A stretch of 64,000 nucleotides of DNA from Deltaproteobacteria bacterium GWA2_38_16. GTDB lineage: Bacteria > Bdellovibrionota > JACOXK01 > 2-02-FULL-40-11. Position 1 is the stretch's first letter. Each line of letters starts with the position of its first letter. The notes under the pieces were generated by a model. The model was not told the DNA's origin. It saw only the letters and a program-made list of their open reading frames with translations, and ran no database searches. The position numbers were made by a program, and so were the translations under genes. The stretch lies in assembly GCA_001797335.1 (NCBI GenBank), contig MGPE01000005.1, forward strand, positions 153,013 through 217,012, given 5' to 3'. This document shows positions 411-54,953 of the stretch, in pieces.

Positions 411-1748
411 ATGGATCCATTGCTTCAAAAAGATCTCCAAAAATTATATGAATGTCCGCGAATAAATGAGTTTATGACGCTTCTTTCCCAATGGGTTAAA
501 AAATATTCTTTAAAAGAAATTGTAGAAACGGTGGCTTTAAGCAGTGCCTCTCGAAAAACGAGTATCATGGGGTTAGAAACTGCGTGGCTGTTATCTCAGT
601 TTTTTCATTCTCAAAATCGTCTTTTGCCCATTGCTCAAATGATGTGGATAAATTTGTGTGAGGCAGCACGATCCTCTGAAATAGATAATATTAAAGAACA
701 GTTTGGAACGCCTCCCAGGGCTTCTGAGCTCAATATGGATGTTTTTAAAAAAGCCTATCGAGAGCGTGATTTTCAAAAAACATTTCGATGGTTTGTGTTT
801 TTAGCGAGAGAAGAAAAACATAGAAAAGAAATGATGTCTTTTCTTGTCTCTCAAGTATTTTCAGATGAGGCCGATGCGGGATATAAAATAGGCTATCTTA
901 TTCAAACCCAGAAATTTTGTGAGTTTTTCCAGTGGAAAGATTTTTATGTTTATTGGTTTTCAACTCTACATGACCTTTTGTATACGCCTTCCAAAGTAGA
1001 ATTGTTTCATGAAGTTGAAGCTTACTGTAAAGAGGTAACTCCTGTTCTCTCAAACTCTGGATTTTTTAATGAAGTGATCTATTCAGACATTAAGGACTCT
1101 GTGTTTAATGATGAAAAATCGGTAACATTAGAAAAAATATCTGATGCTTTAAATACACAAAAACAATCTTTATCGTCGCTATGGGAACTTTTAAAGTTAA
1201 TTTCTGGTGAAACGTCTTTAGAAGCATTTCACTACACTTCTTATCTTTTTGAAGCAGTGCCCTTTTTAAAACTTGAAGATCAATTTAAGGCTTTGCTTCA
1301 AGCCTCATTATTTATTAAGAAAATGGCTATTTTAGCTAAACCTTTTAAGGTTATTGTCGAAGAACCGTTAGGAACAGTTGAAGAAAAAAAAGTGCCTTCT
1401 TTTTTTCTAGAATATGCCATTCGTCGAGGGCAGGTGGGTAAAGCCTTAGGGGCTTTAAACACTCTCGTGGAACATCCAGAAGAAATGAATCAAGTTACTT
1501 TAGAGCTTTTGGCCTTTTTAGCCTCTCAAAATAGTAATATTCTAATGGCAAAGAAAAATATTTCCTGTGCTACTCTTTCCATTAAAAATTATGTTCAGGT
1601 TTCCCATCCATTTAGGCACCTCTATTTAAAAGTGTTAGTAAAATTTCTAGCCGAACAACCCAAAGACAATACAATTTATCATGCTTTGTCTAATACTCAA
1701 AAAATCAAGTTAGGATATTATTCTTTAGAGGGTGATTTTGGGTTTTGA
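411..1748 (+). CDS. hypothetical protein (445 aa, predicted helical, no recognisable motif)
   Basis: Long uninterrupted ORF directly after tgt; no motif I can assign. Confidence 0.5.
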   Translation: MDPLLQKDLQKLYECPRINEFMTLLSQWVKKYSLKEIVETVALSSASRKTSIMGLETAWLLSQFFHSQNRLLPIAQMMWINLCEAARSSEIDNIKEQFGTPPRASELNMDVFKKAYRERDFQKTFRWFVFLAREEKHRKEMMSFLVSQVFSDEADAGYKIGYLIQTQKFCEFFQWKDFYVYWFSTLHDLLYTPSKVELFHEVEAYCKEVTPVLSNSGFFNEVIYSDIKDSVFNDEKSVTLEKISDALNTQKQSLSSLWELLKLISGETSLEAFHYTSYLFEAVPFLKLEDQFKALLQASLFIKKMAILAKPFKVIVEEPLGTVEEKKVPSFFLEYAIRRGQVGKALGALNTLVEHPEEMNQVTLELLAFLASQNSNILMAKKNISCATLSIKNYVQVSHPFRHLYLKVLVKFLAEQPKDNTIYHALSNTQKIKLGYYSLEGDFGF

Positions 1749-2389
1749 AGGTTGGAACGGATTTTTGTGAGAATTTCTTCGTAATGATACGCTGGCGGAG
1801 CATCGGCATCTTGGATGTGATCTGCTCTTAAGACAAGATCTCCAGTTTTAAGAAGTAAGTCTTTTGTTTTTGGATTTTGATCAATCTTGGCTTGAATGGC
1901 TCTGAAAATAAGTTTGTAATGGTCTTCTTTATTTTTGCCTTTGTATTCCATGCGTTTGCCTTGATAAGAAATCCATGTAATTCCTAATTTTTTATAATTT
2001 TCTTTGGTAGCGTCTCCCGCCTCTTTAGCTTCAAAGCCTGAAAGCTGAGCCACTTCTGCACGTGTGTATTTCCACACTAAATCGTTTCGAAATCTGGGAT
2101 CGTCTTTGTCTTCTGGGTCTGGATATTTCATCATTTGCCAAAATCCTTCCACACTGGCGTAGCTTTTTTCATCGAGCGTAAAGGGAGTTGCAGCAAAGTT
2201 AGAAAAAATGCCAAGTTCAGTACGTTTGGAAAGGATCACTTCTTCTCCAAATTTGGCATCTTGAGGCAATATTTCCCACGGCTTTGCTTCTTCTCTGGGA
2301 ACAGGCTTCCACCATTCTGAAGGATAGGGAGTATGATCAGCAAAGAGAGAAGGGGAAAGTAAACACAGCAAAAAGATAATTTTTTTCAT
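1718..2389 (-). CDS. secreted NADAR-domain (YbiA/DUF1768-like) protein
   Basis: N-terminal signal peptide MKKIIFLLCLLSPSLFA; FSNFAATPFTLDEKSYASVEGFWQ resembles the NADAR core motif. Confidence 0.45.
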   Translation of the reverse strand: MKKIIFLLCLLSPSLFADHTPYPSEWWKPVPREEAKPWEILPQDAKFGEEVILSKRTELGIFSNFAATPFTLDEKSYASVEGFWQMMKYPDPEDKDDPRFRNDLVWKYTRAEVAQLSGFEAKEAGDATKENYKKLGITWISYQGKRMEYKGKNKEDHYKLIFRAIQAKIDQNPKTKDLLLKTGDLVLRADHIQDADAPPAYHYEEILTKIRSNLQNPKSPSKE

Positions 2390-2392
2390 GCT

Positions 2393-3433
2393 TTAAAGAA
2401 GCTCTTTCATGAGAGCGTCAAATTCTTCCTTTGTTGGGATAAGATCTTTTTCTGTTAAATCTCGAAGAGGGACATCTACTAAATTTAAAAGCTCATGATG
2501 GGGTTTGGCATCTTTTTTATAGTAGATGAGTCCTGTAATAATTTTTTGTTCTTTAAACCCTTTTTCCAAAACATTTAAAGCATTCATTCGATCTGCTGGA
2601 TCGTATTCGTTGTGGAGTTTTTTAAGTATGAGCTTTGAGCCATCGTGAAGCATGATTTCTGTAGCTTCACCAGGCTTATAATCCACCGTAATTTCTTCAA
2701 ACGAAGGAACAAATCCCAATTCATGAAGAGGGATATCATGTTCTTTAACATAGGGATAACTTTTGGTAGAGGTTTCATGGTTATTAAAGGTGACGCACGG
2801 GCTAATGACATCTAAAATAGCGCAGCCTTTGTGTGCGAGGCCGGCTTTAATAAGGGAGGTGAGTTGTGTTTTATCCCCTGCAAAGCTTCGAGCCACAAAA
2901 GGTGCTCCCAGTTCAATGGCCAGCTGCACCAGATCCAGCGGTTGGTATTCATTCACATCACCATAATGTGACTGGGCATGAAAATCTGCGGTGGCGGAGA
3001 ACTGTCCTTTCGTAAGGCCATAGGTGCCATTATTTTCAATAATATAGAGCATGTCTGTATTTCGACGAACAGCATGCATGAATTGTCCAATGCCAATATT
3101 AGCACTATCTCCATCCCCGCTAACGCCAATATATTTTAAGGTATGATTGGCTGCTTCGGCACCCGTGGCTAAAGAGGGCATCCGACCATGGACCGCATTA
3201 AATCCATGTGAGTGCGATAAAAGATAGGTAATGGATTTACTGGAACATCCAATACCGCTGAGTTTTGCAAGTTTATGAGGGGGCAGTCCCATCTCATAAC
3301 AGGCATTGATGATACAACTTGTGATAGAATCATGCCCACATCCCTTACACAAAGTAGAGGGAGGTCCTTGATAATCTTGTTTTGAAAAACCAGAACGATT
3401 GGTCATATCAGCCATGAGCGATTGCCTCCTCAA
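2393..3433 (-). CDS. korB: 2-oxoacid:ferredoxin oxidoreductase beta subunit (TPP-binding), KorB-like
   Basis: 346 aa; TPP-binding signature GDGDSANIG..IIENNGTYGLTKGQ; overlaps korA by 26 bp. Confidence 0.85.
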   Translation of the reverse strand: MRRQSLMADMTNRSGFSKQDYQGPPSTLCKGCGHDSITSCIINACYEMGLPPHKLAKLSGIGCSSKSITYLLSHSHGFNAVHGRMPSLATGAEAANHTLKYIGVSGDGDSANIGIGQFMHAVRRNTDMLYIIENNGTYGLTKGQFSATADFHAQSHYGDVNEYQPLDLVQLAIELGAPFVARSFAGDKTQLTSLIKAGLAHKGCAILDVISPCVTFNNHETSTKSYPYVKEHDIPLHELGFVPSFEEITVDYKPGEATEIMLHDGSKLILKKLHNEYDPADRMNALNVLEKGFKEQKIITGLIYYKKDAKPHHELLNLVDVPLRDLTEKDLIPTKEEFDALMKELL

Positions 3434-5210
3434 TTTTATGAGAGATGAAATCAGGATCTAAGGGTAATCCATCGGAATAGGCTATCGGAAAAATTTTAGG
3501 GGCAATGTCACAAAATTGTAATTTTATAAGAGTGGCCAATTGACTGTCTCGATTGTGATCAATGACAATGACTTTATCACAGGTTTTAATGAAATCTTTT
3601 ACTTCTTTATGGAAAGGGTAAGCTAAAACTCTAAGATATTTAAGAGATGTTTTCTTTATTTTTAAGTCATCCAGTGCTTCTTGAATGGCATGGTCATTGG
3701 TTCCTGCGCTAATAATTCCTATTTTAGCTTTGGCATCTCCTAAAACGATAGGTTTGGGTAAATATTGAGGGGCCGTATGAAATTTCTTTTCTAACCGAAG
3801 CATATTGGTTCTGTAAACGGTTGGATCTTCGGAATACCCTGCTATTTCTGTGTGTCCTGTCCCCCGTGTAAAATAAGCAGCCAGAGGATGTGGAGTGCCG
3901 GGTAGTGTTCGATAAGGGATTCCATCTTTATCAATATCTGCATATCGACCAAAGGATTTAATATTTTCTAAATCTTTAAGAGTGAGTACTTTTCCTCGAT
4001 CAAATGGACCTTTTAAATAATTAAAAGGTTCACTGGCCCAATAGTTCATTCCCAATTCTAAATCTGTCATGACAATAACGGGAGTTTGTAAACGATCAGC
4101 AATGTCGAATGATTTTGCTCCCAGCTCAAAGGCTTCTTTGACGGTGGCTGGGAATAAGAGAATATGTCTATTATCTCCATGAGAAGCAAAAGCACATTTT
4201 AAAATATCGGCTTGTTGGGTTCGTGTGGGCATCCCTGTAGAAGGTCCTACCCGTTGTACATTAACGATGACCACAGGAACTTCTGCATAATAGGCCAGTC
4301 CTAAAAATTCACTCATGAGTGAAATTCCAGGACCGGAGCTAGCCGTCATGGCACGCGCACCCATCCATCCTGCTCCAATGGCAGCACCAATGGCACAGAG
4401 CTCATCTTCTACTTGAATGACGGCTATTTTTTTCTTTTTTGTTTCAGGATCTGTTCGCAATCTTTGTCCATAGCTATCCATCGCTTCATTTAAAGAACTG
4501 GCCGGAGTAATGGGGTACCAAGCATCTACCGTACACCCTCCCATAATACACCCTAAAGCGGTGGCGGCATTGCCTTCGATGACAATCTGGGGTTTGGCGT
4601 TTTTGATTTTTTCATAAGAATAAGGATCTTTTTTGGGTAAATGTTCTTTGGCATATTGAATCCCCAGATCAATGGCTTTTAAATTGACATCAATGGCTTT
4701 TTGTTTTTTCTTAAAACTGTCTTCAATAACACTTCGTAAAATGTTTTTATCAAGGCCAAAAATTTCTGCCATCACTCCCACATAGAGCGTATTGGTGAGA
4801 AGCGATCTGAGTCTGGGGGTATCAAACGTATTTTTGGCAATCTTTGTAAGAGGAACAGGATAATAGGTAACGTTTTCTTTAGGAGTTCCAATGTTAAGAG
4901 TGGTTTCATCATAGATCACGACATCTCCTGGATGAACTTCTGCCAAGTCTTGACCCATAGAGGCAGGATTGACAGCTATGAGAACTTCTGAATGTCGTTT
5001 CATCGATTGATAGCCTTTGGGATTGGTCCGAATATAAAACCAGGTGGGAAGTCCTTGGATATTAGAAGGAAAAAGATTTTTAGCAGAGGTTGGAATACCC
5101 ATTCTGACCAAGGTTTTAAAAAGAATATTGTTTGCCGATTGGCTTCCCGTACCATTAATGGTTGCAATTTTAATGGTGAAGTTATTGACAATTTTTTGAG
5201 GCGTACTCAT
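3408..5210 (-). CDS. korA: 2-oxoacid:ferredoxin oxidoreductase alpha subunit, KorA-like
   Basis: 600 aa; N-terminal KIATINGTGSQSAN motif and length typical of KorA/OorA-type alpha subunits; translationally coupled to korB. Confidence 0.85.
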   Translation of the reverse strand: MSTPQKIVNNFTIKIATINGTGSQSANNILFKTLVRMGIPTSAKNLFPSNIQGLPTWFYIRTNPKGYQSMKRHSEVLIAVNPASMGQDLAEVHPGDVVIYDETTLNIGTPKENVTYYPVPLTKIAKNTFDTPRLRSLLTNTLYVGVMAEIFGLDKNILRSVIEDSFKKKQKAIDVNLKAIDLGIQYAKEHLPKKDPYSYEKIKNAKPQIVIEGNAATALGCIMGGCTVDAWYPITPASSLNEAMDSYGQRLRTDPETKKKKIAVIQVEDELCAIGAAIGAGWMGARAMTASSGPGISLMSEFLGLAYYAEVPVVIVNVQRVGPSTGMPTRTQQADILKCAFASHGDNRHILLFPATVKEAFELGAKSFDIADRLQTPVIVMTDLELGMNYWASEPFNYLKGPFDRGKVLTLKDLENIKSFGRYADIDKDGIPYRTLPGTPHPLAAYFTRGTGHTEIAGYSEDPTVYRTNMLRLEKKFHTAPQYLPKPIVLGDAKAKIGIISAGTNDHAIQEALDDLKIKKTSLKYLRVLAYPFHKEVKDFIKTCDKVIVIDHNRDSQLATLIKLQFCDIAPKIFPIAYSDGLPLDPDFISHKIEEAIAHG

Positions 5211-5265
5211 GATTTAGAATCCTTGACTTTGCTATAGCATAGTTAATTTTTTTTATGCAATATAT

Positions 5266-5766
5266 TTATGAATTAACTTTTGAGATCACTCCTCCTTGTA
5301 AAGCAGGTCGGTTACTTAAATATTCTTTGTCCATAATGAAGCTTGATTCTGAGTAATCTGCCCATTCATATTCTTGGCCCATGCGTATAGCATCCACGGG
5401 GCAGGCTTCTTCACAATAGCCACACATAACACACCTTAAAAGATCAATTTGAAAAGAAATGGGGAATTTTTCTACCTTGGGATCCGGATGTTCTGAAGGT
5501 GTAATCTTAATACACCGAGCTGGGCATGCGGTTTGGCAAAGAAGGCAAGATGTACATCGAATGGATCCATCTAATTTTTTGGTTAAAATGTGTTTTCCTT
5601 TAAACCGAGCGGATCGTTCGCGTTTTTTTTCTGGGTATTGAATGGTAGGGATTTTTCGAATTCTAAGAAGATTTAAAATAAAATGTTTTAAGGTAACGGT
5701 CATTCCTAAAAGCATGCCTCGAAAGAAAAAGAGTTTGTGATAGGAGGGGGGACGTTTAATTAACAT
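5266..5766 (-). CDS. nuoI: NADH-quinone oxidoreductase subunit I (two [4Fe-4S] ferredoxin motifs)
   Basis: CTSCLLCQTACP and CVMCGYCEEACPVDAI motifs; position downstream of nuoG. Confidence 0.8.
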   Translation of the reverse strand: MLIKRPPSYHKLFFFRGMLLGMTVTLKHFILNLLRIRKIPTIQYPEKKRERSARFKGKHILTKKLDGSIRCTSCLLCQTACPARCIKITPSEHPDPKVEKFPISFQIDLLRCVMCGYCEEACPVDAIRMGQEYEWADYSESSFIMDKEYLSNRPALQGGVISKVNS

Positions 5767-7259
5767 AAAATCTCACAAATGGGTTTTGCTTCGGGAATAA
5801 GTTTTACACCTCGAGAGAGTTTTTGGGACAATCCTTTAAAGTTTACAAAAGTTCCTTCTGTTTCGATAAAGGTAAGGGTGGGTAACAGGAGATCAAAAAG
5901 AGGGATTTGGTGCTTTACTTGGGTGCCAATATAAATTTTTGTTTTAAGGGAATTATTCTCTTTAAACCAGGATAAAAATTCTGGATAGGCTTCTAAATCA
6001 TGGGGGCCAAAAATAAATAATATTGTCCAAGGATCTGATTTTAATTTTTGTTGAAAAAGAGAGAGATTTTGTTCTTGAAGCTTATAGTGGGCGCTGATTT
6101 TAAGTAAGCCCTGTGAGTTTGGATTTTTATCTCGACGGAAAAGAAGCTCATCTGTAACGGTAGAGTCAGATGCAAGATGGGAATCTGCGCAATGAAAAAT
6201 ATTTTGGGTGCCAATGGTTTTGGTAAAAAAATCATATATGTGGGTGATGTCTTCTGATGTGTATTGAGGGGTAATGAGGACAGAAATTTGCGAAGCTGGT
6301 GTTTTAAAAATAGTAAATAATTCATGTTTTGTTTCATCCCATTCCGTAGGAATAAGCGTGGCTGCTTTTTTGATGAGAGGGGTAGAGATTCTTGATTCTC
6401 TGTGGGTATGTTTATACCGCATGCGTCCATAGTCACACATCCAATAGCCATTGACTTCTTCGTTAAAACGCGGGCGCATTCGATAGGTTCGTTTTTCAAT
6501 GGGATCTTGTGAGATAGTAACATTGCATCCAGTAGAACATCCCGGGCAAATAGATGGGATATCTTTTAAAAACCATACTCGCCTTTTAAATCGAAAATCA
6601 CGACTGGTGAGAGCACCGACAGGGCAAATATCGACACTATTTAAGGTGTAATTATTGTTCAAAGCTTTGTCTTCGTAGGTGCCAATTTCACTTCGGTCTC
6701 CTCGGTTAAAAATAGCCATTTCACTGGTTTTAGGAACTTCATCAAAAAAACGTACACACCGAGAGCATAGAATACATCGCTCGGTATCTAACATTACATG
6801 ATCCCCAATGGGGATAACTTTTCGTTTTTTTACTTTTTCTTCTTCCATGCGGCTCTCATATTTTCCAAATTGCATGTAATAATTTTGAAGACCGCATTCG
6901 CCGGCTTGATCGCAAATAGGACAATCAAGGGGATGATTGATAAGATGAAACGCAAGATTCCACTTTTGAATATTTTTAACAGTTTCAGTTTGAGTTTTAA
7001 CCACCATATTTTCAGTGACGGTGGCATTACATGAAATCAAAGGGCGGGGTTGGCCTTCGACTTCAACAAAGCACATGCGGCAACAGCCTGCGACGGATAA
7101 TCCAGGGTGGTAGCAGTAGTGAGGAACGGAAACGCCATTATCCAAAAGGGCTTTTAAGAGATTTCCGCCCTTTGGAGCTTCGATGACTTTTCCGTCAGCC
7201 GTAATTTTTACCATGGGATTCTTCGCTTTTGGCTCAGAATGACTTGTCATAAATGACAC
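5760..7259 (-). CDS. nuoG: NADH-quinone oxidoreductase subunit G (short form)
   Basis: N-terminal 2Fe-2S ferredoxin domain (MVKITADGKVIEAPKGGNLLKALL...CCRMCFVEV), HxxxCxxC and CxxCxxC..CP motifs; true start probably the internal MVKITADGK Met. Confidence 0.85.
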   Translation of the reverse strand: MSFMTSHSEPKAKNPMVKITADGKVIEAPKGGNLLKALLDNGVSVPHYCYHPGLSVAGCCRMCFVEVEGQPRPLISCNATVTENMVVKTQTETVKNIQKWNLAFHLINHPLDCPICDQAGECGLQNYYMQFGKYESRMEEEKVKKRKVIPIGDHVMLDTERCILCSRCVRFFDEVPKTSEMAIFNRGDRSEIGTYEDKALNNNYTLNSVDICPVGALTSRDFRFKRRVWFLKDIPSICPGCSTGCNVTISQDPIEKRTYRMRPRFNEEVNGYWMCDYGRMRYKHTHRESRISTPLIKKAATLIPTEWDETKHELFTIFKTPASQISVLITPQYTSEDITHIYDFFTKTIGTQNIFHCADSHLASDSTVTDELLFRRDKNPNSQGLLKISAHYKLQEQNLSLFQQKLKSDPWTILFIFGPHDLEAYPEFLSWFKENNSLKTKIYIGTQVKHQIPLFDLLLPTLTFIETEGTFVNFKGLSQKLSRGVKLIPEAKPICEILC

Positions 7260-8518
7260 CTTTTATTTTTAATATGGTACTCGAATTCCTGCTTAAACTT
7301 TGTCACAAAACTTTTTACCGGCATCGCAGCGGCATCTGAAAGGGCACAAATGGTTCTTCCCCCCATCATATTGGTACTAATGTCTTGAAGGAGAGGAATA
7401 TCTTCAGCTCTTCCTCGTTGATGAAGAATGCTATCCACTACTTTTTTCATCCATCCCGTTCCTTCTCGGCACGGAGTGCATTGACCACAGGATTCATGTT
7501 TATAAAAATACGTAATGACACTTAAAAGATCCACCATGCATTGGTCATTGGCAATGACAATCACGCCCCCAGATCCCAGCATGCTGCCTACTTTAGCTAA
7601 AGATTCAAAATCCATCGTCATCGTCATGGTTTCTTCAGCCGTTAACACAGGGGCTGAGAGTCCTCCGGGGATGACCGCTTTTAACTTTAAATTACCGGTG
7701 AGCCCTCCGCCGATATCGTAAATTAAATCTTTCAACGGAAAACCAAGGGGAAGTTCATAGGTTCCTGGATTTTTAACAGGGCCTGACAAGCAAAAAAGTT
7801 TTGTGCCGGGGCTTTTTTCTGTGCCTATTTTTTTATAATTGTCTGCTCCATTTAAAATAATCCAAGGAAGAACAGCCAGCGTTTCAACGTTATTAATGAC
7901 GGTGGGTTTTTTGTTAAATCCACTAATGGCAGGAAAAGGTGGTTTTACTTTAGGTTGCCCTTTGGCTCCTTCCATAGAGGTGACAAGTCCTGTTTCTTCT
8001 CCACAGATGTAAGCTCCCGCGCCTTTAAAAACATGAATATCAAGAGAAAACGGTGTGCCAAAGATATTTTTTCCTAAAAAATTATTTTTAGTGCATTCTT
8101 GAATGGCTGCTTCTAAAGCTTCGATCGATTCTGTATATTCTCCCCGAACATAAATATAGGCTCTGGGGCATTGGATAGCATAGCAGGCAATAATCATTCC
8201 TTCCAAAGTAGAATGCGGAATTTGCTCCATGAGAATTCTATCTTTAAAGGTTCCCGGTTCTCCCTCGTCTGCATTGCAGAGAAGGTATTTCAGGGGAGCA
8301 TCTTTAGGAACGAAAGACCATTTCATTCCCGTGCCAAAACCTGCGCCTCCTCGTCCTCGAAGGCCAGAGTTTTTAACAAGCGTAATAATGTCTTCTGGTT
8401 TTGTTTCTTTTAAAACTTTTTGGGCGGCTGTATATCCACCGTGCTCCCGGTAAACAGCGAGTTTTTTAATATTGGGGATATGTAGATTTTGAAAAACAAT
8501 TTTTGGCGTAGGTGTCAT
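7247..8518 (-). CDS. nuoF: NADH-quinone oxidoreductase subunit F (NADH/FMN-binding)
   Basis: GRGGAGFGTGMKW and C-terminal 4Fe-4S cysteine motif (ESCGQCTPCREG). Confidence 0.9.
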   Translation of the reverse strand: MTPTPKIVFQNLHIPNIKKLAVYREHGGYTAAQKVLKETKPEDIITLVKNSGLRGRGGAGFGTGMKWSFVPKDAPLKYLLCNADEGEPGTFKDRILMEQIPHSTLEGMIIACYAIQCPRAYIYVRGEYTESIEALEAAIQECTKNNFLGKNIFGTPFSLDIHVFKGAGAYICGEETGLVTSMEGAKGQPKVKPPFPAISGFNKKPTVINNVETLAVLPWIILNGADNYKKIGTEKSPGTKLFCLSGPVKNPGTYELPLGFPLKDLIYDIGGGLTGNLKLKAVIPGGLSAPVLTAEETMTMTMDFESLAKVGSMLGSGGVIVIANDQCMVDLLSVITYFYKHESCGQCTPCREGTGWMKKVVDSILHQRGRAEDIPLLQDISTNMMGGRTICALSDAAAMPVKSFVTKFKQEFEYHIKNKRCHL

Positions 8519-8988
8519 GGGAGTTCTTTCAGTAATTGCTCCATTTTTTCTGGGGTGACTTGATAGTAATAGGTGTCGTTAATTCGAAGGGTGGGAGCTT
8601 TGTCGCATCCCCCTAAACATTCAGCTGTGCTCAACGTAAATTTTTTATCTTGAGTGGTTTCTCCTGCTTCAATCTTTAATTTCTTTTTAAGGTGAGAAAA
8701 AAGTTCTCGGCTTTTCATCATTGTACAAGAAATGTTGGTGCAGATTTGAATATGGTATTTCCCGACGGGTTTTTTATGTAGCATTGTATAAAAAGAAGCG
8801 ACTTCTTTGACTTTGGCAGGGGAAAGTTCTGTGAGTGTAGCAACATATTCAATAACCTCTGGGCTTAAATATCCAAATTCTTTTTGTGCCAAATGGAGAG
8901 TGGGAAGAAGTTTGGATTTGGGATTATCATATAAAGTGTCAAAGCTTTTAAATTCTTTGAGTGCGTTGGGTGAAAATTGAATATTCAT
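8515..8988 (-). CDS. nuoE: NADH-quinone oxidoreductase subunit E (thioredoxin-like 2Fe-2S)
   Basis: 157 aa; CTNISC...ECLGGCDKAP cysteine pattern. Confidence 0.9.
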   Translation of the reverse strand: MNIQFSPNALKEFKSFDTLYDNPKSKLLPTLHLAQKEFGYLSPEVIEYVATLTELSPAKVKEVASFYTMLHKKPVGKYHIQICTNISCTMMKSRELFSHLKKKLKIEAGETTQDKKFTLSTAECLGGCDKAPTLRINDTYYYQVTPEKMEQLLKELP

Positions 8989-10664
8989 CGGTCCAATTCT
9001 CCTGCAATAATGTTTAAGCTCCCAATCGTTGCAATAGCGTCGGCAATCATTAATCCTTCAATCATCTTGGGATAAGCTTGGTAATGAGCAAAAGAAGGGG
9101 CTCGGCAATGGATGCGATGGGGAAGCCCTGTGCCATTGCTTACAATATAAAATCCAATTTCTCCATTGGCAGATTCAATATAATTATAAATTTCTCCTTT
9201 GGGAGGCTTAATACCTTCGATAACCAGCATAAAATGATTCATCAATCCTTCGATATTATTATAAACATCTTCTTTTTGAGGAAGGACAATGGATTTGTCG
9301 TCAATTTCAATGGGGCCATCGGGGAGTTTGTCGATAGCTTGTTCGATAATACGACAACTTTGTCTTATCTCTTCCATCCTTACTAAATATCGATCATATA
9401 CGTCACCTTGAGTTGAGATAGGAACCTCAAAATCATAGTTTTCGTAGCCGCTATAGGGGGTTAATTTTCTAAAATCAAGTTCTACTCCGCAGGCGCGAAG
9501 AAGAGGGCCAGTGAGACCATAATCTATGGCGTCTTCCTTAGAGATTCGTCCGACATCTTTACATCGGTTAATAAAAATTCGGTTATTGGTAAGGAGCCGG
9601 TCGATATCTTGGATGGCCGCGCGGATAGATTTTATGGTTTTCTTGGCTTCATCCACCCACCCCTCAGGGAAATCATACATCACTCCCCCAATCATCATTC
9701 CTCGGGGGAACATTCTTCCCCCTCCCCATTTTTCAAAAAGGGTGTAGACTTTTTCCCGTTCAGCAAATGCAAACCAAAAGTTAGTCAAAGCACCCAGATC
9801 AACAGCACCGGTGCCGATGACGACCAAGTGATCAATGATTCTTGAAAATTCTCCAATAATGACGCGAATAGCTTGTGCCCGAGGAGGAGCAATAACCCCC
9901 AATAGTTTTTCCATGGCTAAACAAAAACCAAAATTATTCATGGGGCCAGAGGTGTAGTTAAGCCGTTCGGTGTACGGAATTACTTGATGATAGAGATGGG
10001 TTTCGGCCATTTTTTCAAAACAGCGGTGAAGATAACCTATCTCTACATCGGCTTTAATAATTTTTTCTCCTTCGAGAAGGGCCATGGTTCGAAGGGTTCC
10101 ATGGGAAGCTGGATGTGAAGGGCCTAAATTTAAAAGCATTCTTTTTTCAAATTGATTTCCATAAAGGTCTTCTTGGGTAATGTCCATTAACTCTTCAATG
10201 GCTGGAGCTTCATCTAAAGATTGTCTATTTTCAGGATCAAAATCTTTTCTTAAGGGATGACCTATAAATTTTTGATGGCATAAAATCCGTTTTAAATTGG
10301 GATGCCCCGAGAATTTAACTCCAAACATGTCATAGGTTTCTCGTTCATACCAATTGGCTGATTTCCAAAGAGGGGTTATAGAAGTGATCTCTTCATTTTC
10401 GGCTACTTTTGTTTTAATACGGATTCTTTTTTTAGAGGCTAAGGAAAAAAGGTGGTAGATCACTTCAAATCGTTCTTTTTGGGTAGGAGTGTCAGCACCA
10501 CAGATATCCATCAAAAATTCAAATTTTTGTTCTTCTTTAAGATATTTTAAAAGAGCAGGGATGCCTTCTTTCTTAACATATAAAGAGAGGTCTCCGCGGT
10601 AGTCACCATATGACTCAATATGGGAAGGAAAACGAGCCTTTAGCGTTTCTAATAGAGCAGTCAT
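8985..10664 (-). CDS. nuoCD: NADH-quinone oxidoreductase fused subunits C/D
   Basis: 559 aa; N-terminal NuoC-like (NWYERETYDMFG) and C-terminal NuoD-like (LNLGPSHPASHGTLR) regions. Confidence 0.9.
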   Translation of the reverse strand: MTALLETLKARFPSHIESYGDYRGDLSLYVKKEGIPALLKYLKEEQKFEFLMDICGADTPTQKERFEVIYHLFSLASKKRIRIKTKVAENEEITSITPLWKSANWYERETYDMFGVKFSGHPNLKRILCHQKFIGHPLRKDFDPENRQSLDEAPAIEELMDITQEDLYGNQFEKRMLLNLGPSHPASHGTLRTMALLEGEKIIKADVEIGYLHRCFEKMAETHLYHQVIPYTERLNYTSGPMNNFGFCLAMEKLLGVIAPPRAQAIRVIIGEFSRIIDHLVVIGTGAVDLGALTNFWFAFAEREKVYTLFEKWGGGRMFPRGMMIGGVMYDFPEGWVDEAKKTIKSIRAAIQDIDRLLTNNRIFINRCKDVGRISKEDAIDYGLTGPLLRACGVELDFRKLTPYSGYENYDFEVPISTQGDVYDRYLVRMEEIRQSCRIIEQAIDKLPDGPIEIDDKSIVLPQKEDVYNNIEGLMNHFMLVIEGIKPPKGEIYNYIESANGEIGFYIVSNGTGLPHRIHCRAPSFAHYQAYPKMIEGLMIADAIATIGSLNIIAGELDR

Positions 10665-10749
10665 GGATGTAAAAGAATCTAATCAGTTTAGCCTGCCCTG
10701 TCAATAAAACTCGTTGTAATCAATAGAGAGTTTTTGATACACTAAAAGT

Positions 10750-11085
10750 ATGTTTGACTGGTTTCGAAACACGAGCAGTCAAAAGCAGTCTCCAGAAAAA
10801 GTTCTTACCTTAAAAGATCAGGTTCGCCAGCAATATGATGCTTATTATATTGGAAAAATTACTCATTTTTATGCCCGCATGGGAGTAGCCATTTTAGTGG
10901 TTGAAAAAGGAGAAATCACGTTAGGGGATACGATTTATATTCAGGGTGCCAATACGCGATTTAAACAGCACGTGACTTCTATTGAATACCAACACCGAAA
11001 AGTAAGACGCGTAGGCCCTGGCTATGAAGTTGGAATTCAACTCTCCGTCCGCGCCCGCATTGGCGATGATGTGTATCGTCTATGA
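10750..11085 (+). CDS. hypothetical small protein, possibly EF-Tu domain-2-like beta-barrel
   Basis: 111-aa ORF; weak resemblance only. Confidence 0.35.
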   Translation: MFDWFRNTSSQKQSPEKVLTLKDQVRQQYDAYYIGKITHFYARMGVAILVVEKGEITLGDTIYIQGANTRFKQHVTSIEYQHRKVRRVGPGYEVGIQLSVRARIGDDVYRL

Positions 11086-11920: not shown

Positions 11921-12601
11921 CTAAAGCAATAGTTCCAATAGGTGGGACTCTTCTGCTTTTTCCAAACTACTTTTTATCTTATTTTGCCACTTCTTAGGTA
12001 TTGAATTGAAGACTTTCTTAACTTCATCAATTTCATCATTATGTATGAGAGCATTTAAAATATCTATCCCGCTTTGGCGATCTTTTATGGCTTTATCTTC
12101 TTTCTGCCTTCGGTGCACTATAATGAGCTTATGCAAAGCATAGTAGATAGGATGAGGGAGTGTTATTACGAAGTTTTCTATTTCAACCTCAATCGTATGT
12201 TGAGCCAAAAAATCAAGAAATCGCAACGGCGTTGCATTAAGTCCTAACATGGGTAAAGGATGGGGTTTGTCACTTCCTCTCCCTTTTTCTGGCACCAAAA
12301 ATTCAAGCATGAGGTCTGGATGGTTTAATCTGATATATCCTTTTTCGCCTTGAAAACTTACAACAAATCCCAAATCTTTTAAGAGTAAAGGAATATCTAC
12401 TTTTTCTTTTATCTTATTTGGTGCATTAATTAGAAAATCAATATCTCGAGTTCGTAATGTGGTAAAACTCTTCTTTGAATGAAAATAATCTTTGTAAAAA
12501 GGAGCACACCAGCTTCCCACTAAAGTTAAATAATCCAAAATGCCGGTTTTGTGAAATCGCCTTAAAATTTCAAGGCATAATTCATATTGCTTCTTTTCCA
12601 C
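11921..12601 (-). CDS. nucleotidyltransferase-fold protein (minimal NTase motif GS...DxD)
   Basis: LVGSWCAPFY...TRDIDFL matches the hG[GS]...[DE]h[DE]h NTase signature; 226 aa. Confidence 0.5.
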   Translation of the reverse strand: MEKKQYELCLEILRRFHKTGILDYLTLVGSWCAPFYKDYFHSKKSFTTLRTRDIDFLINAPNKIKEKVDIPLLLKDLGFVVSFQGEKGYIRLNHPDLMLEFLVPEKGRGSDKPHPLPMLGLNATPLRFLDFLAQHTIEVEIENFVITLPHPIYYALHKLIIVHRRQKEDKAIKDRQSGIDILNALIHNDEIDEVKKVFNSIPKKWQNKIKSSLEKAEESHLLELLL

Positions 12602-12902
12602 GTAAAGTTCCTTTTAAAAACTTGATTTGTTTTTTGACTTGAGAAAGAAGATTTCTATATTTGGCTCTTAGTTTTTTAGCTTCTGCATACCTTTCAATTT
12701 CTTTTCTAGCTACTTTTCCTCTATAGACATATTTTACTTTTTTGCCGTAACGCTGAACCAGGTAATAATAATCATGCCCCCCTATCTTTCGAAGAGCTAA
12801 AGAACCCTTGGGGAGCTTTTTTAAGACACTCTCATATTGTCTCTTCATACGAAGAGAATTTCCAAGCTCTTCTTTTAAAACACCTTTAATAGGGCCTTTC
12901 AT
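12582..12902 (-). CDS. small basic protein, partner of the downstream NTase (20-bp overlap)
   Basis: 106-aa Lys/Arg-rich ORF overlapping the start of 11921..12601. Confidence 0.4.
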   Translation of the reverse strand: MKGPIKGVLKEELGNSLRMKRQYESVLKKLPKGSLALRKIGGHDYYYLVQRYGKKVKYVYRGKVARKEIERYAEAKKLRAKYRNLLSQVKKQIKFLKGTLRGKEAI

Positions 12903-15268: not shown

Positions 15269-15580
15269 ATGACTACAAGAAAACTAAGAAGCAATGAAGA
15301 AGCCCTTATAGGGGAGTTAAAAAATTCTCAAGAGGCAGCTGCATATCTTTCTGCAGCTTTAGAGGAGAACGATTTAGATATTTTTTTACTTGCTCTGAGA
15401 AGAGTGGCACAAGCTCAAGGAGTTACAAAGATCTCCACAGAAACATCTTTAAATCGGCAACATATTTATCGAGCTTTAAGTCGAAATGGAAATCCAACAT
15501 TAAAAAATCTCATGGCTATTCTCTCAGCTCTCGATTTTGAATTAGAAGTTAAACCAAGAAAAAAGGCTGTTAATGACTAA
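15269..15580 (+). CDS. HigA-family addiction-module antidote protein (HI1420-like), apparently orphan
   Basis: 103 aa; RRVAQAQGVTKISTETSLNRQHIYRALSRNGNPTLKNLMAILSAL strongly resembles the HI1420-type antitoxin HTH region. Confidence 0.7.
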   Translation: MTTRKLRSNEEALIGELKNSQEAAAYLSAALEENDLDIFLLALRRVAQAQGVTKISTETSLNRQHIYRALSRNGNPTLKNLMAILSALDFELEVKPRKKAVND

Positions 15581-15592
15581 GGGTGATTGGTA

Positions 15593-15904
15593 TCATTCGC
15601 TAACGGTAACACAAACAGAAAAAGGTTTTTCGGCTTTTTCTCTGAGGCCTAAAACGGGTGTTGATATAGAACCCATTGTGGTCATGGGATAGGTAGTGCC
15701 TGCAGTTCCGATAATTTGTCTGGCACGTAGCATTCCATTAAGTTCTCTAGAAGCCATTTCCCACCCATCACTACTTTCTGCACACATAACGCCCCAGGAC
15801 TTAAAGCTACCTGCAATTTTTCGATTTTCTTTTTTTTCCGCTGCGTAAGTGTTTGTAAAAACAAAAGATAACATCAATAGCAAAAAACTTATTTTATATT
15901 TCAT
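15593..15904 (-). CDS. small secreted hypothetical protein
   Basis: Signal peptide MKYKISFLLLMLSFVFTNTYA; 103 aa. Confidence 0.4.
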   Translation of the reverse strand: MKYKISFLLLMLSFVFTNTYAAEKKENRKIAGSFKSWGVMCAESSDGWEMASRELNGMLRARQIIGTAGTTYPMTTMGSISTPVLGLREKAEKPFSVCVTVSE

Positions 15905-33444: not shown

Positions 33445-33538
33445 CGTGGTCAGACTTGTATACTTCGAATGTAAATGAGGTTTCGACTTTTCTTTTTTAA
33501 TACGGCCCTACTCTACGCGCTTTTTGTTTACAGGGAAT

Positions 33539-33577
33539 ATGATTTGTGTCATATTTTCAGCACATGATTTATGTCAT
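33539..33577 (+). promoter_or_regulatory. two FNR/CRP-family-like palindromic boxes upstream of nirK
   Basis: ATGATTTGTGTCAT (33539..33552) and ATGATTTATGTCAT (33564..33577), each ATGA-N6-TCAT, 25 bp apart, 25-60 bp upstream of the nirK ATG. Confidence 0.4.
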
Positions 33578-33601
33578 TTTTCTGCCATCAAGGAGGAAAT
33601 A

Positions 33602-35008
33602 ATGAAAAAAATATTTTTGATCATTATCGGTATCGGATGTTTTGGAAATCTTTTATCGTGTAAGTCATCTTTGCCTATTGAAAAAGCTGTTCTAACTTTT
33701 GCTCCAGAAGTGCCGCCGGTGATTACGCGGACATCTCCAGCAAAAGTGATTGTTGATCTAGAGGTTCAAGAAGTGGTCAATCAACTGGCCGATGGTGTTG
33801 AATATACGTTTTGGACATTTGGGGGGAAAGTTCCTGGGAAATTTATTCGAGTTCGAGAAGGAGATATCGTAGAGTTTCATTTGGCCAACCATCCTGCCAA
33901 TAAGCTTCCTCATAATATTGATCTTCATGCAGTGACAGGGCCTGGTGGGGGCGCCACCAGTTCCTTTACAGCGCCTGGACATAAATCCCAATTTACATTT
34001 ACAGCGTTAAACGCGGGTCTCTATGTATATCACTGTGCCACGGCTCCTGTAGGGATGCATGTGGCTAATGGCATGTATGGGCTTATTTATGTGCAACCCA
34101 AAAAAGCGCTGCCTAAGGTGGATCGTGAATATTATGTTATGCAAGGAGATTTTTATACCAAGGGTGTTTTTAGTGAAAAAGGGCTTCAGCCCTTTTCCAT
34201 GGAAAAGGCTATCGATGAAAAACCAAGCTATGTGGTGTTTAATGGGGCGGTGAATTCATTGGTGGGGGATAATGCACTGAAAGCCAAAGTAGGAGAAACC
34301 ATTCGTTTATTTGTGGGAAATGGGGGGCCGAATTTGGTTTCGTCATTTCATGTTATTGGAGAAATTTTTGATAAAGTGTATCAAGAAGGAGGGACTTCCA
34401 CTGTTCAGGAAAATGTTCAAACTACTTTAGTTCCCGCTGGAGGATCAGCCATTGTTGAATTTAGGATGGATGTTCCTGGAACTTTTATTTTAGTTGATCA
34501 CAGTATCTTTAGAGCATTTAATAAAGGAGCTTTGGGAATGCTTAAAGCGGAAGGGCCAGAAAATAAAGTCATTTATTCTGGAAAAGAGGTGGATGAAAAT
34601 TATATTGAGAGCCAAGCACATCCCCAAGCAGGGTTAAAATCAGAACCGTCCCCTTTAAAAGCCGGGCGGAGTGGGGCTACTATTTTTGAAAATGTATGCG
34701 CCATGTGTCATCAACAAGAAGGACAAGGCCTTTCTGGCGTATTTCCTCCTTTGGCAAAATCAGACTATCTTTCTCATTTAGCCGTTAGAGATCGAGAGAA
34801 ATTAGTATCTATTATTCTAAAAGGGTTATCGGGAAAAATTACCGTGAATGGAAAAGAGTATAATAATGTGATGACGCCTGTTTCAGGACTTTCTGATGAA
34901 GAATTAGTAACCATCTTAAATTATATTATCAGTTCCTGGGGAAATTCTGGAAAACCATTTACTTTAGAGGAAGTGAAAAAAGCGAAAGAAAAAATTGAAT
35001 CGAGATGA
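33602..35008 (+). CDS. nirK: copper-containing nitrite reductase with C-terminal cytochrome c domain
   Basis: Cupredoxin ligand motifs (HNIDLHA; [16 protein letters not shown]); C-terminal heme motif CAMCH; likely start at ATG 33602 with AGGAGG RBS (ORF track starts 33524). Confidence 0.85.
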
Positions 35009-36150
35009 AAAAAAATATTTTCAGCCATTTTTTCTTGGCTGCTATTTTCATAGAGGGGGGAACATTTACCCCCTTCTATGGTTTGAATAAAGATCAAAAA
35101 AGTGTATCCGTAAAATCTTTTCGTATAGATGATGCTCCTGTAACCAAGCAGCAATTTTTTAATCATGTCTCTAAGCGGGGGAATGTGCCGGTAACCTATG
35201 TGTCGTGGGATGATGCACAAGCGTATTGCAAGGCTCGGGGAGGCAGACTCCCCACTGTTTTTGAGTGGGAATATGTAGGCAGTGCCAGTGAGACTCAAAA
35301 AGATGCTTCGAAGGATCCAAAATTTATTCAAAAACTTTTAGAGTGGTATTCAAAGCCCGTTGATGAAGCTAAAATTCCAGAGGTTAAGCAGGGAAAACCC
35401 AATGTTTGGGGAGTGTACGACATGCATGGAGTGGTGTGGGAATGGGTCTATGATTTTAATAGTAGCTTTGTCACCGGAGATAATCGTCAGGATAAAGATA
35501 AACTCAAAGATTTGTTTTGTGGAGCAGGAGGAGAAGGTGCTCAAGACCGAATTAATTACGCAGCCTTTATGCGATATGCATTGAGAAGTAGTTTAAAAGC
35601 ATCTTATAAACTTATGAATCTAGGATTTCGGTGTGCTTATGATGAAAAAAATCAGGACGAGAATATTCAAACGTCTCTTGATTTATCTCCCTATCGCTCT
35701 CATTTTGTGGTGATCACGATGACGTATACGAGCTGCCAATCGGCTTGTCCTTTGATTATAAAAAAATTAAAAACCATTTTAAAAGCATTAGGGGGAGATA
35801 TCCAAAATATTGAATTTGTGGTGGTGACGTTTGATCCAACTATTGACACAGCTTCTCATCTTTTAGAATACCAAAAAAAACAAGGTCTTGATTTTCAAAA
35901 TTGGCATTTTTTAAGCGGTTCCGAAGAAGAAACCCGAAAGATGTCTTTATTTTTAGATATTTCTTATCAAAAAGATGCTACGACGGGGCACTTTATGCAC
36001 AGCAATAAAATTATTCTTTTAAATCCTGAGGGTCAAAAGGTAGTAACCCTAGATGGTTTGGATTCTGATATTGAGCCACTTTTAAAAGCCATGGGTAAAA
36101 CACCCAAAGCTTCTTTTTTCAAAAAACTTAAAAATTATTTTACCTTTTAA
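35005..36150 (+). CDS. NirV-like FGE-sulfatase-domain protein fused to a Sco1/SenC copper chaperone domain
   Basis: N-terminal [38 protein letters not shown] (FGE/SUMF1-like); C-terminal [10 protein letters not shown] (Sco CxxxCP) and thioredoxin-like region; ATGA overlap with nirK. Confidence 0.7.
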
Positions 36151-36625
36151 ATTGTGTATTGCTCGGTTCGTCTACGCAGGAAGAACAGCAGGGCATGGAT
36201 TTTAAAAATTTAGTGGGGCCAAACTTAAGAGCGAGAAGCATATTTTTTACAAAGATCAAAATTCCTAAAAATTGTAAAAGCCCAAAAACAAAAAAAAGAA
36301 GGTTCCAAGGAAGAGAGGAATCATAAAAAATATTTTGTAAGAGCGGTACGGTGATCATTCCCATCATTCCAATATTAGCCAGCCATAAGTGAAGCCTTTG
36401 ATAATGATCGGGGACAAGAGGACTTGATGCAAAGCGGGGGATGACATGATACGCCAGACCAAAAATCATCATCGAAATCCACCCAATGGCCATCGTATGG
36501 GCATGGGGAAAATGAATGATTGTTTTCCAAGTAGGAAAAGAAGCCATTACTGTGCCCATAAGGGCACCTACCAATAAATAAAGAAGACTTGAAATGACAA
36601 ATAATCTAGAATAGGGAGACATCAT
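36140..36625 (-). CDS. hypothetical His-rich integral membrane protein
   Basis: About 4 predicted TM helices; conserved-looking His in HFPHAH and AYHVIPRF. Confidence 0.4.
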   Translation of the reverse strand: MMSPYSRLFVISSLLYLLVGALMGTVMASFPTWKTIIHFPHAHTMAIGWISMMIFGLAYHVIPRFASSPLVPDHYQRLHLWLANIGMMGMITVPLLQNIFYDSSLPWNLLFFVFGLLQFLGILIFVKNMLLALKFGPTKFLKSMPCCSSCVDEPSNTQFKR

Positions 36626-36661
36626 TAAGTTTTATTTTTAACATAGGGAGTCCATAAAAAC

Positions 36662-37402: not shown

Positions 37403-37405
37403 ATC

Positions 37406-37417
37406 TGATCAGTATCA
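37406..37417 (+). promoter_or_regulatory. FNR-like box (TGAT-N4-ATCA) upstream of the molybdoenzyme alpha gene
   Basis: cTGATcagtATCAt directly after the TauE stop codon, about 65 bp upstream of the likely alpha-subunit start. Confidence 0.4.
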
Positions 37418-37435
37418 TTTTTATCTCTACCGAAA

Positions 37436-40924: not shown

Positions 40925-40927
40925 AGC

Positions 40928-51165: not shown

Positions 51166-51168
51166 AAA

Positions 51169-54414: not shown

Positions 54415-54485
54415 GTCCAGGTATTCATATAAAATAGTGACATAGGTCATATTTGATCCGAAGGGGATGAGATAATAAGGGCCTT

Positions 54486-54938: not shown

Positions 54939-54953
54939 ATCATAATCCGAAGT

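Follow-up and report, generated by a model that had tools for sequence, protein, structure and literature searches.

Complex I and related systems

Canonical NDH-1, with its 14 subunits (13 when NuoC and NuoD are fused), is encoded by a single operon, as in Escherichia coli (nuoA-N; 7awt/7p61) and Thermus thermophilus (nqo1-14; 4hea). The complex I of Campylobacter and Helicobacter is fed by OOR/POR through flavodoxin. Bifurcating or soluble NADH:ferredoxin modules (HydABC, Nfn-like, Fdh/Hyd-linked NuoEFG) possess a NuoF/HydB with extra ferredoxin-type Fe-S domains, and a hydrogenase or FDH partner takes the place of NuoCD and NuoI. A "split arrangement" of the nuo genes has been described in BALOs, and a nuoAHJKLMN cluster in all Bdellovibrionota studied, predatory as well as non-predatory, in a set that does not include the lineage treated here (PMC13147790, 2026).

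The sequence analysed here, referred to as the window, is a 64-kb stretch from the genome of GWA2_38_16, an uncultured organism known from a MAG of Rifle aquifer groundwater (2.0 Mb, 38% GC) that NCBI places among the unclassified Deltaproteobacteria. We consider it quite probable that its nuo genes, one half of a split operon, encode the peripheral arm of a canonical complex I, and that through local rearrangement within the lineage nuoB left the 5' end and korAB joined the 3' end.

Gene organization of the locus

Eight tightly packed minus-strand genes lie between positions 10664 and 1718; they are given here together with a promoter-like site and the spacer between nuoI and korA:

promoter-like site, 10676..10704, minus strand: TTGACA-17-TAGATT, 10 of 12 consensus matches, ends 12 bp before the nuoCD start codon
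nuoCD, 10664..8985, minus strand, 559 aa: fused Complex1_30kDa and Complex1_49kDa domains; TIGR01962 (NuoD) 492 bits, cutoff 459
nuoE, 8988..8515, minus strand, 157 aa: TIGR01958 164, cutoff 142; 4-bp overlap with nuoCD
nuoF, 8518..7247, minus strand, 423 aa: TIGR01959 594, cutoff 559
nuoG, 7250..5760, minus strand, 496 aa from the ATG at 7250: N-terminal Fe-S domains and a truncated molybdopterin-like domain
nuoI, 5766..5266, minus strand, 166 aa: TIGR01971 120, cutoff 113; 7-bp overlap with nuoG
nuoI-korA spacer, 5211..5265, minus strand, 55 bp: AT-rich, with a Shine-Dalgarno-like AAGGA before the korA ATG
korA, 5210..3408, minus strand, 600 aa: fused gamma and alpha domains; TIGR03710 538 bits, cutoff 483
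korB, 3415..2393, minus strand, 340 aa: TPP_enzyme_C and PFO_beta_C; 8-bp overlap with korA
NADAR/GP30.3-like gene, 2389..1718, minus strand, 223 aa: hydrophobic N-terminus; 3 bp after korB

Successive reading frames overlap by 4-8 bp along this gene string, with the exception of the 55-bp gap between nuoI and korA. The family matches have E-values of 1e-35 to 1e-179, which rules out chance for the assignments. A preliminary description of the window had listed a partial cluster nuoCD-E-F-G-I that runs straight into a 2-oxoacid:ferredoxin oxidoreductase, and had placed the neighbour of nuoCD on the opposite strand. All of this is borne out: the minus-strand reading frames coincide exactly, their families are confirmed by profile scores, korA and korB lie 55 bp past nuoI, and upstream of nuoCD an 85-bp interval is followed by a divergent gene (10750..11085, plus strand). 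To that description we add the short form of NuoG and the NADAR/GP30.3-like gene behind korB. The promoter-like site is the top-scoring one of the region by consensus match only, site counts in our promoter and terminator scans, which record consensus matches, being not above shuffled expectation. No terminator-like hairpin was found by the consensus scan on the coding strand of the nuoI-korA spacer.

Peripheral-arm subunits

The FMN site and the ligands for clusters N1a, N3, N1b, N4, N5, N6a and N6b are complete in the encoded proteins, the N7 cysteines are present as well, and these cofactor motifs are shared with canonical NDH-1. NuoE has all four cysteines of the N1a [2Fe-2S] cluster (83, 88, 124, 128), NuoF the glycine-rich FMN/NADH-binding motifs and the N3 cysteines (344, 347, 350, 391), NuoG the full Cys/His sets for N1b, N5, N4 and N7, and NuoI two CxxCxxCxxxCP motifs (71-82 and 112-123). 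NuoG, for which we use the same 496-aa length as the gene callers, is about 300-400 aa shorter than its E. coli or Thermus counterparts and scores 391 with TIGR01973, below the cutoff of 470, because its C-terminal molybdopterin domain is truncated; complete nuo operons (L019-L021, L023) can likewise contain a NuoG of similar size (about 500-545 aa).

The NuoC portion of NuoCD is recognized by NuoC_fam (144, cutoff 122), and the top PDB match of the protein is Aquifex NuoCD2 (7q5y_B, E = 2e-132). Its quinone-site residues are found in the motifs HPASHG (184-189), RLNY (234-237) and DLGA (289-292), with His188 and Tyr237 aligning with His224 and Tyr273 of E. coli NuoCD; the His, Tyr and Asp of the canonical NDH-1 site are thus present, and all three positions are invariant in the window, in L007-L009 and in the Bdellovibrionota relatives. 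Within the lineage, NuoCD (68-77% identity) and NuoI (75-80%) are as conserved as NuoF (67-77%), which indicates that the subunits of the quinone module have not been under relaxed constraint. Judging from motifs and conservation, the function of the encoded peripheral arm looks intact.

Since NuoE and NuoF are both present and canonical, NADH is the expected electron donor. The juxtaposition with korAB recalls the metabolic link of a 2-oxoacid:acceptor oxidoreductase with complex I in Campylobacter and Helicobacter, but those bacteria lack NuoE and NuoF and carry full membrane operons. Neither NuoE nor NuoF shows an extra ferredoxin domain, the domains of NuoF being Complex1_51K, SLBB and NADH_4Fe-4S only; we rejected a NuoEF-type bifurcating module on this ground and on the presence of NuoCD and NuoI. 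A HydABC- or FDH-type partner was likewise rejected, as NuoG has neither an H-cluster domain nor an intact molybdopterin catalytic domain.

A probable split nuo layout, shared with relatives

The genes of the window do not form the single operon of canonical NDH-1. The earlier observation that nuoA, nuoB, nuoH and nuoJ-N are missing from the cluster extends to the whole 64 kb, in which no such genes were found; tblastn searches there with reference NuoB, NuoH, NuoJ, NuoL, NuoM and NuoN gave no match, and the gene tables list no nuo gene in the 10 kb past each window end. Neither nuoB nor membrane-arm genes occur in these about 84 kb of contiguous sequence or on the contigs of the close relatives L001-L011.

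Clusters restricted to the peripheral arm, of the order nuoB-CD-E-F-G-I, recur in about 60 loci of relatives, all of them without a gene for a membrane subunit in the surrounding 10 kb. Four such cases (L012, L025/L026, L027, L028), from the nearest relatives, have no nuoA, nuoH or nuoJ-N over that distance. Most of 80 metagenome loci (L029-L108) share the layout: nuoB precedes nuoCD and nuoE in 45, of which 28 extend far enough for the complete series up to nuoI to be seen, and NuoH, J, L, M and N are found in none of the 80. The NuoCD matches listed share 69-100% identity within the lineage and 54-58% outside it, and those listed from outside that carry a name all belong to Bdellovibrionota, Oligoflexia, Bdellovibrionales or Bdellovibrionaceae. 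NuoCD, NuoF and NuoI are 51-58% identical to homologs from Bdellovibrionota versus 34-50% to those of other phyla; it is by this similarity of nuo proteins only that the lineage appears tied to Bdellovibrionota.

The locus resembles the split nuo of Bdellovibrio-like bacteria (PMC13147790) in its fused nuoCD (about 560 aa), its short nuoG (about 500-555 aa), the position of nuoI straight after nuoG without nuoH, and the lack of membrane genes nearby. It differs in having a divergent gene and the promoter-like site where nuoB stands at the 5' end, and in the appended korAB (with icd in two relatives) at the 3' end. A divergent gene also lies upstream of nuoCD in L008-L010, and nuoB is not upstream in a few other loci either (L054, L064, L059, L063).

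The preliminary description had left two alternatives, a split nuo operon or a module that would connect NADH with ferredoxin pools in a metabolism of the reductive TCA type, of which we retain the former. The layout in relatives, the reported nuoAHJKLMN cluster (PMC13147790), the intact motifs, including the invariant quinone site of NuoD, and the conservation of NuoCD and NuoI all argue for a normal complex I encoded by a split operon. NuoE, NuoF and NuoG would oxidize NADH, NuoI would relay the electrons, and NuoCD together with NuoB would form the quinone-reduction site, the peripheral-arm genes constituting one operon and the membrane genes, presumably the reported nuoAHJKLMN, lying at a different chromosomal site. 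The group of GWA2_38_16 would have undergone two rearrangements, namely the departure of nuoB from the 5' end of the cluster and the joining of the TCA genes korAB (with icd in two relatives) to its 3' end. As the lineage lacks the usual 5' nuoB, an intact complex depends on a nuoB that we did not observe, and we infer that this gene and the membrane genes reside elsewhere in the GWA2_38_16 genome. We would therefore be dealing with an ordinary respiratory complex I, not a novel type of enzyme, in a split layout already reported for Bdellovibrio-like bacteria; specific to this lineage are the missing 5' nuoB and the korAB genes (icd in two relatives) after nuoI.

Nuo paralogy does exist in the phylum, as Peredibacter is reported to possess a complete nuoA-N operon in addition to its nuoAHJKLMN cluster (PMC13147790), and in relatives from Oligoflexia nuoI is immediately followed by another set of NuoB-like, NuoD-like and ferredoxin genes. 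The nuo genes of the window might by analogy be a redundant paralogous copy of the peripheral arm, perhaps for use in another enzyme, next to a complete 14-gene operon elsewhere. We regard this as improbable: the genome measures only 2.0 Mb, the nuo genes of the window show no sign of decay, and by best hits and synteny their cluster is the ortholog of the nuoB-CD-E-F-G-I cluster that Bdellovibrionota possess as a single copy.

Association with korAB

KorA and KorB form a two-subunit enzyme without a delta (ferredoxin) subunit. The top PDB match of KorA is 6n2n chain A (E = 6.5e-68); 6n2n and 6n2o represent the 2-oxoglutarate:ferredoxin oxidoreductase (OGOR) of Magnetococcus marinus. With this enzyme and the Sulfolobus OFOR (5b46-5b48) the window proteins share a fused gamma/alpha subunit, a TPP-binding beta subunit, the lack of delta, and a single [4Fe-4S] cysteine set in the beta subunit, for which Cys 23, 26, 57 and 198 of KorB are candidate ligands; the TIGR02177 score of KorB (192) is below the cutoff of 262. 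The closest structure, the names of homologues at JGI and the icd neighbour in relatives suggest 2-oxoglutarate as the substrate.

Whereas korAB lies downstream of nuoI in the window, the genes for the three KorA homologues that we examined as the closest from outside the lineage form isolated korAB pairs not flanked by nuo genes, and the kor linkage is therefore a matter of local gene order. Within the lineage, nuoI directly precedes korA in three of five relatives (L007, L009, L011); icd stands between the two in L010 and right after nuoI in L008, where the contig stops after icd. The arrangement most likely reflects oxidative TCA genes set beside respiration. One promoter before nuoCD would probably drive both the NADH-oxidation genes and this putative 2-oxoglutarate:ferredoxin oxidoreductase, that is, we infer co-transcription of the nuo genes with korAB. 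That the two are instead independent abutting units, korAB having its own promoter in the spacer, is possible but the less probable reading. In its favour, the genes are separated by a real gap nowhere but at these 55 AT-rich bp, outgroups have korAB as a pair by itself, and icd follows nuoI in L010 and L008; against it, no terminator-like hairpin follows nuoI on the coding strand, and gene order and orientation persist in lineage members even though their KorA proteins are only 59-70% identical.

The same neighbourhood could be read, in keeping with the second alternative of the preliminary description, in favour of a soluble assembly of NuoCDEFGI and KorAB, devoid of a membrane arm and of NuoB, in which NuoI would act as the ferredoxin-like partner of a 2-oxoacid/ferredoxin-NAD(H) shuttle. 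nuoB and nuoH are absent from the cluster and the surrounding 84 kb, nuoI and korA share a strand and are separated by 55 bp that contain no terminator-like hairpin, the two are direct neighbours in three of five relatives, KorAB lacks a ferredoxin subunit, and a distant locus of 70% GC (L108) reads nuoB-CD-I-korA-korB. Such a shuttle is nonetheless very unlikely. NuoCD itself binds no redox cofactor and is known only as a partner of NuoB and NuoH in forming the quinone site, yet the residues of that site do not vary and the protein is conserved to the same degree as NuoF; in relatives, nuoB is part of the peripheral-only cluster, for which a separate membrane counterpart has been reported (PMC13147790); no nuo genes adjoin those of the closest KorA homologues that we examined from outside the lineage; and icd intervenes between nuoI and korA in L010. 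The species is moreover predicted to lack carbon fixation, its species cluster being scored in a published trait table as 0 for carbon fixation, 1 for the TCA cycle and 1 for O2 metabolism. These traits, together with the canonical single-function NuoE and NuoF, icd after nuoI in two relatives and the three stand-alone outside homologues, also speak against the reductive-TCA module linking NADH and ferredoxin that had been suggested earlier.

A NirK-cytochrome c and an Nxr/Nar-type complex are also encoded in the 64-kb window and indicate a respiratory lifestyle. The NADAR/GP30.3-like gene is probably the last gene of the korAB-containing unit; downstream of korB and on the same strand, it is found directly in L010 and about 2.9 kb on, past two ORFs, in L011.

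Gene content of the nuo-kor string

Eight genes form one tight string on the minus strand of the window, from 10664 to 1718, with identities assigned from Pfam and NCBIfam.

Genes of the nuo-kor string in the window, in order of reading
10664..8985, minus strand: nuoCD (fused), 559 aa
8988..8515, minus strand: nuoE, 157 aa
8518..7247, minus strand: nuoF, 423 aa
7250..5760, minus strand: nuoG, short form, 496 aa; all N-terminal Fe-S domains present, molybdopterin-like domain truncated
5766..5266, minus strand: nuoI, 166 aa
5210..3408, minus strand: korA, alpha subunit of a two-subunit 2-oxoacid:acceptor oxidoreductase, 600 aa
3415..2393, minus strand: korB, beta subunit, 340 aa
2389..1718, minus strand: NADAR/phage GP30.3-like protein with a hydrophobic N-terminus, 223 aa

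NuoD, NuoF, NuoE, NuoI and KorA score above the curated equivalog or subfamily cutoffs of NCBIfam. Adjacent genes overlap by 4-8 bp, except for an AT-rich spacer of 55 bp between nuoI and korA (5211-5265) and a 3-bp gap between korB and the NADAR/GP30.3-like gene. The latter has no evident role in a nuo/kor unit, and is also found downstream of korB in two close relatives (L010, 16005-16697; L011, 10575-11318). The preliminary description of a nuoCD-E-F-G-I cluster lacking nuoA, nuoB, nuoH and nuoJ-N, placed straight before korAB and preceded by a gene on the opposite strand, is fully borne out by the ORFs, the Pfam and NCBIfam assignments, tblastn and the gene tables of the flanks, the divergent gene being located at 10750..11085 (plus strand). 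The 85-bp interval between this gene and nuoCD contains TTGACA-17-TAGATT, the highest-ranking promoter-like sequence of the region (a consensus match only), and a consensus scan of the coding strand found no terminator-like hairpin after nuoI, both to be read as weak positional hints, as the promoter and terminator scans overall did no better than shuffled expectation. The complex I genes and the TCA dehydrogenase genes downstream probably constitute one operon; separate transcription of nuo and kor as two adjoining units is a possible, if rather doubtful, alternative, which we weigh independently of the other rival readings.

Upstream of the nuo cluster there are two small accessory pairs (11921-12902 and 15269-15904), one consisting of an NTP_transf_8 nucleotidyltransferase and a DUF6788 protein, the other of convergent 103-aa ORFs, of which one is HI1420-downstream (antitoxin-like). 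Genes of these pairs recur on metagenome contigs with an identical NuoF, which probably belong to the same population.

A probable split complex I, as in Bdellovibrionota

A search with NuoCD recovered approximately 15 clusters at 69-100% identity, which correspond to the lineage (the GWA2_38_16 group), followed by a tier at 54-58% in which the named matches among those listed are all from Bdellovibrionota, Oligoflexia, Bdellovibrionales or Bdellovibrionaceae. NuoF, NuoI, NuoG and NuoE have the same affiliation pattern. The loci of the close relatives (L001-L011) have kept nuoCD-E-F-G-I and the same divergent gene upstream, and nuoB is absent from them. In Bdellovibrionota proper (L012, L025/L026, L027 and L028), the cluster reads nuoB-CD-E-F-G-I with a NuoG of 498-555 aa, and no nuoA, nuoH or nuoJ-N was found within 10 kb of it. 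Among 80 metagenome loci with fused-NuoCD relatives, nuoB is followed by nuoCD and nuoE in 45, and the 28 of these that are long enough display the full run to nuoI; the upstream nuoB is missing in four (L054, L064, L059, L063), and none of the 80 encodes NuoH, NuoJ, NuoL, NuoM or NuoN. Complete B-C-D-E-F-G-H-I-J...N operons from other phyla also contain short forms of NuoG (∼500-545 aa; L019-L021, L023), and the short NuoG is therefore no sign of a defective enzyme.

In a recent comparison centred on Peredibacter, all predatory and non-predatory Bdellovibrionota examined had a nuoAHJKLMN cluster, located at one and the same chromosomal site, and the nuo genes of BALOs other than Peredibacter were described as being in a "split arrangement" (PMC13147790, 2026). 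Our loci match this split independently, as the peripheral cluster never lies beside membrane genes. We thus consider it likely that the cluster encodes the peripheral arm of a canonical complex I whose genes are split as described for Bdellovibrionota. A split nuo operon was one of the two options put forward in the preliminary description, and it is supported by the peripheral-only clusters of the relatives, by the published arrangement, and by the invariant residues of the quinone site. Two changes would then be particular to the lineage: the displacement of nuoB from the 5' end of the cluster, and the addition of korAB (plus icd, encoding isocitrate dehydrogenase, in two relatives) at its 3' end.

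With complete-operon references for NuoB, NuoH, NuoJ, NuoL, NuoM and NuoN as tblastn queries, no match was obtained in the window or on the contigs of close relatives, and look-ups from the edge genes showed the next 10 kb beyond each end of the window to be free of nuo genes. Scans of genome contigs and metagenomes likewise recovered contigs with the peripheral clusters of relatives only, and none with membrane genes. A nuoB of GWA2_38_16 did not surface in the homology search because NuoB is too conserved: a Pseudobdellovibrionaceae NuoB used as query gave 7987 matches, the 120 listed being 71-92% identical to it. P0077, a candidate whose source pattern was similar, was rejected, as it comes from another Bdellovibrio-like organism with nuoB-CD-E-F-G-I. 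That the genes found here are a redundant second copy of the peripheral-arm genes seems unlikely.

Linkage to korAB

The korAB pair directly follows nuoI in the window and in L007, L009 and L011; in L010 icd lies between nuoI and korA, and in L008 icd follows nuoI before the contig ends. The best solved relative of KorA is PDB 6n2n, which we take to be the two-subunit 2-oxoglutarate:ferredoxin oxidoreductase of Magnetococcus. KorA homologues from beyond the lineage (50-56% identity) are spread over many phyla, and in the three nearest contexts inspected (one of them in an Oligoflexia MAG) korAB forms a stand-alone pair with no nuo genes nearby, so that the nuo-kor adjacency is specific to the lineage. 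The placement of kor and icd reads as that of TCA-cycle dehydrogenase genes beside those for NADH dehydrogenase in an aerobic heterotroph.

The second option of the preliminary description, a module linking NADH and ferredoxin pools for a reductive TCA-type metabolism, found no support, nor did a bifurcating variant. NuoE and NuoF are canonical and lack the additional Fe-S domains seen in bifurcating homologues, icd is a neighbour in two relatives, korAB stands alone in the outside contexts inspected, and the representative of the species cluster, RIFCSPHIGHO2_02_FULL_38_15, is scored 0 for C fixation and 1 for both TCA cycle and O2 metabolism (Anantharaman et al., 2016, PMC5079060; the trait lists of its supplements have no complex I column). 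A flavodoxin-fed complex I of the Campylobacter type was rejected in view of the presence of NuoE and NuoF.

KorAB could also be docked on, or stoichiometrically coupled with, the peripheral arm, in which case electrons from 2-oxoglutarate would pass straight into NuoI/NuoB with no free ferredoxin. The nuoI-korA order, found lineage-wide, is in favour of such coupling, as is a distant and apparently independent second nuoI-korAB junction on a metagenome contig of 70% GC (L108, 2797-8711), where nuoB, nuoCD, a NuoI-like gene, korA (626 aa) and korB (345 aa) follow each other on one strand and nuoE, nuoF and nuoG are absent. We nevertheless regard this coupling as very unlikely.

Cofactor ligands and quinone site

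All expected ligands examined are present: NuoE has those of N1a, NuoF those of N3 along with the FMN motifs, NuoG those of N1b, N5, N4 and N7, and NuoI contains CxxCxxCxxxCP twice. NuoD itself binds no cofactor; its only known function is to build the quinone site jointly with NuoB and NuoH. At the positions of E. coli NuoCD His224 and Tyr273, and at the Asp of the DLGA motif, no substitution is seen in any lineage member or outgroup compared. Within the lineage, NuoCD (68-77%) and NuoI (75-80%) are as conserved as NuoF (67-77%), so that the quinone module and the NADH module are under equally strong selection. In its extreme version, the coupling to KorAB would involve neither NuoB nor a membrane arm, the product being a soluble NuoCDEFGI-KorAB 2-oxoacid:NAD+ oxidoreductase. 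Judging from these alignments, a quinone module this conserved would be hard to reconcile with a genome devoid of NuoB or a membrane arm, and we hold such a soluble module to be highly improbable.

If the split complex I is the correct reading, the matter is chiefly one of annotation: peripheral-only nuo clusters in Bdellovibrio-like MAGs would represent neither a partial or novel complex I nor a marker of the reductive TCA cycle. An uncultured groundwater lineage with a 2-Mb genome would have undergone a modest operon remodelling, with nuoB out of the cluster and korAB (icd in relatives) directly downstream. A wider bioenergetic interest would arise only from direct KorAB-complex I coupling or from the soluble enzyme, both of low probability.

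Respiratory genes of the host

The GWA2_38_16 genome (2.0 Mb, 37.8% GC, 19 scaffolds), a MAG from the Rifle aquifer, is unclassified at NCBI. The window carries a respiratory nitrogen-oxide gene set (33524-43624 and 49612-55652), which includes:

33524-35008: NirK-like multicopper oxidase fused to cytochrome c
35005-36150: FGE-sulfatase/SCO1 fusion, followed by a TauE gene
37436-40924: molybdopterin subunit (1162 aa) of a type II DMSO-reductase-family complex
to 43624: remainder of this complex, with beta (Fer4_11) and gamma (EB_dh haem) subunits and a NarJ-like chaperone
49612-54414: Moco biosynthesis genes, with a Crp/Fnr regulator beyond (set extending to 55652)

The complex is a candidate periplasmic molybdoenzyme of the Nxr/Nar or (per)chlorate type. 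With the NirK-cytochrome c fusion, this molybdoenzyme and its chaperone, the Moco genes and the Crp/Fnr regulator, GWA2_38_16 is a respiring organism.

Other nuo arrangements

In two Oligoflexia-type relatives, a second, smaller paralogous set directly follows nuoI (L027, 15440-18676; L028, 13669-16881), encoding a NuoB-like protein (∼161 aa), an ORF of 70-93 aa, a NuoD-like protein without NuoC part (∼346 aa), a two-cluster ferredoxin (∼150 aa) and a ∼335-aa protein without family match. Such a set may represent a second module, either hydrogenase-like or for quinone. A second NuoB match past nuoI also occurs in L031, L043, L052 and L068, together with a second NuoCD match in L031 and L052.

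In two close relatives, genes are split into two overlapping ORFs (nuoCD in L010, 6538-8230; nuoG in L011, 2894-4293), probably by assembly frameshifts, pseudogenisation being the alternative. Eight metagenome loci (L072, L073, L081, L089, L096, L100, L104, L105) have nuoB-CD-I only, without nuoE, nuoF, nuoG or membrane genes in their flanks, in high-GC (61-70%) as well as low-GC (31%, L104) hosts; across these lineages the nuo genes appear to have been fragmented in several different ways. According to tblastn, nuoB directly precedes nuoF and a short nuoG, with no nuoC, nuoD or nuoE between, in MAGs of Binatia, Myxococcales and 'Proteobacteria' (L013-L016), and a NuoI-like gene lies ∼5-6 kb upstream in L013 and L014.
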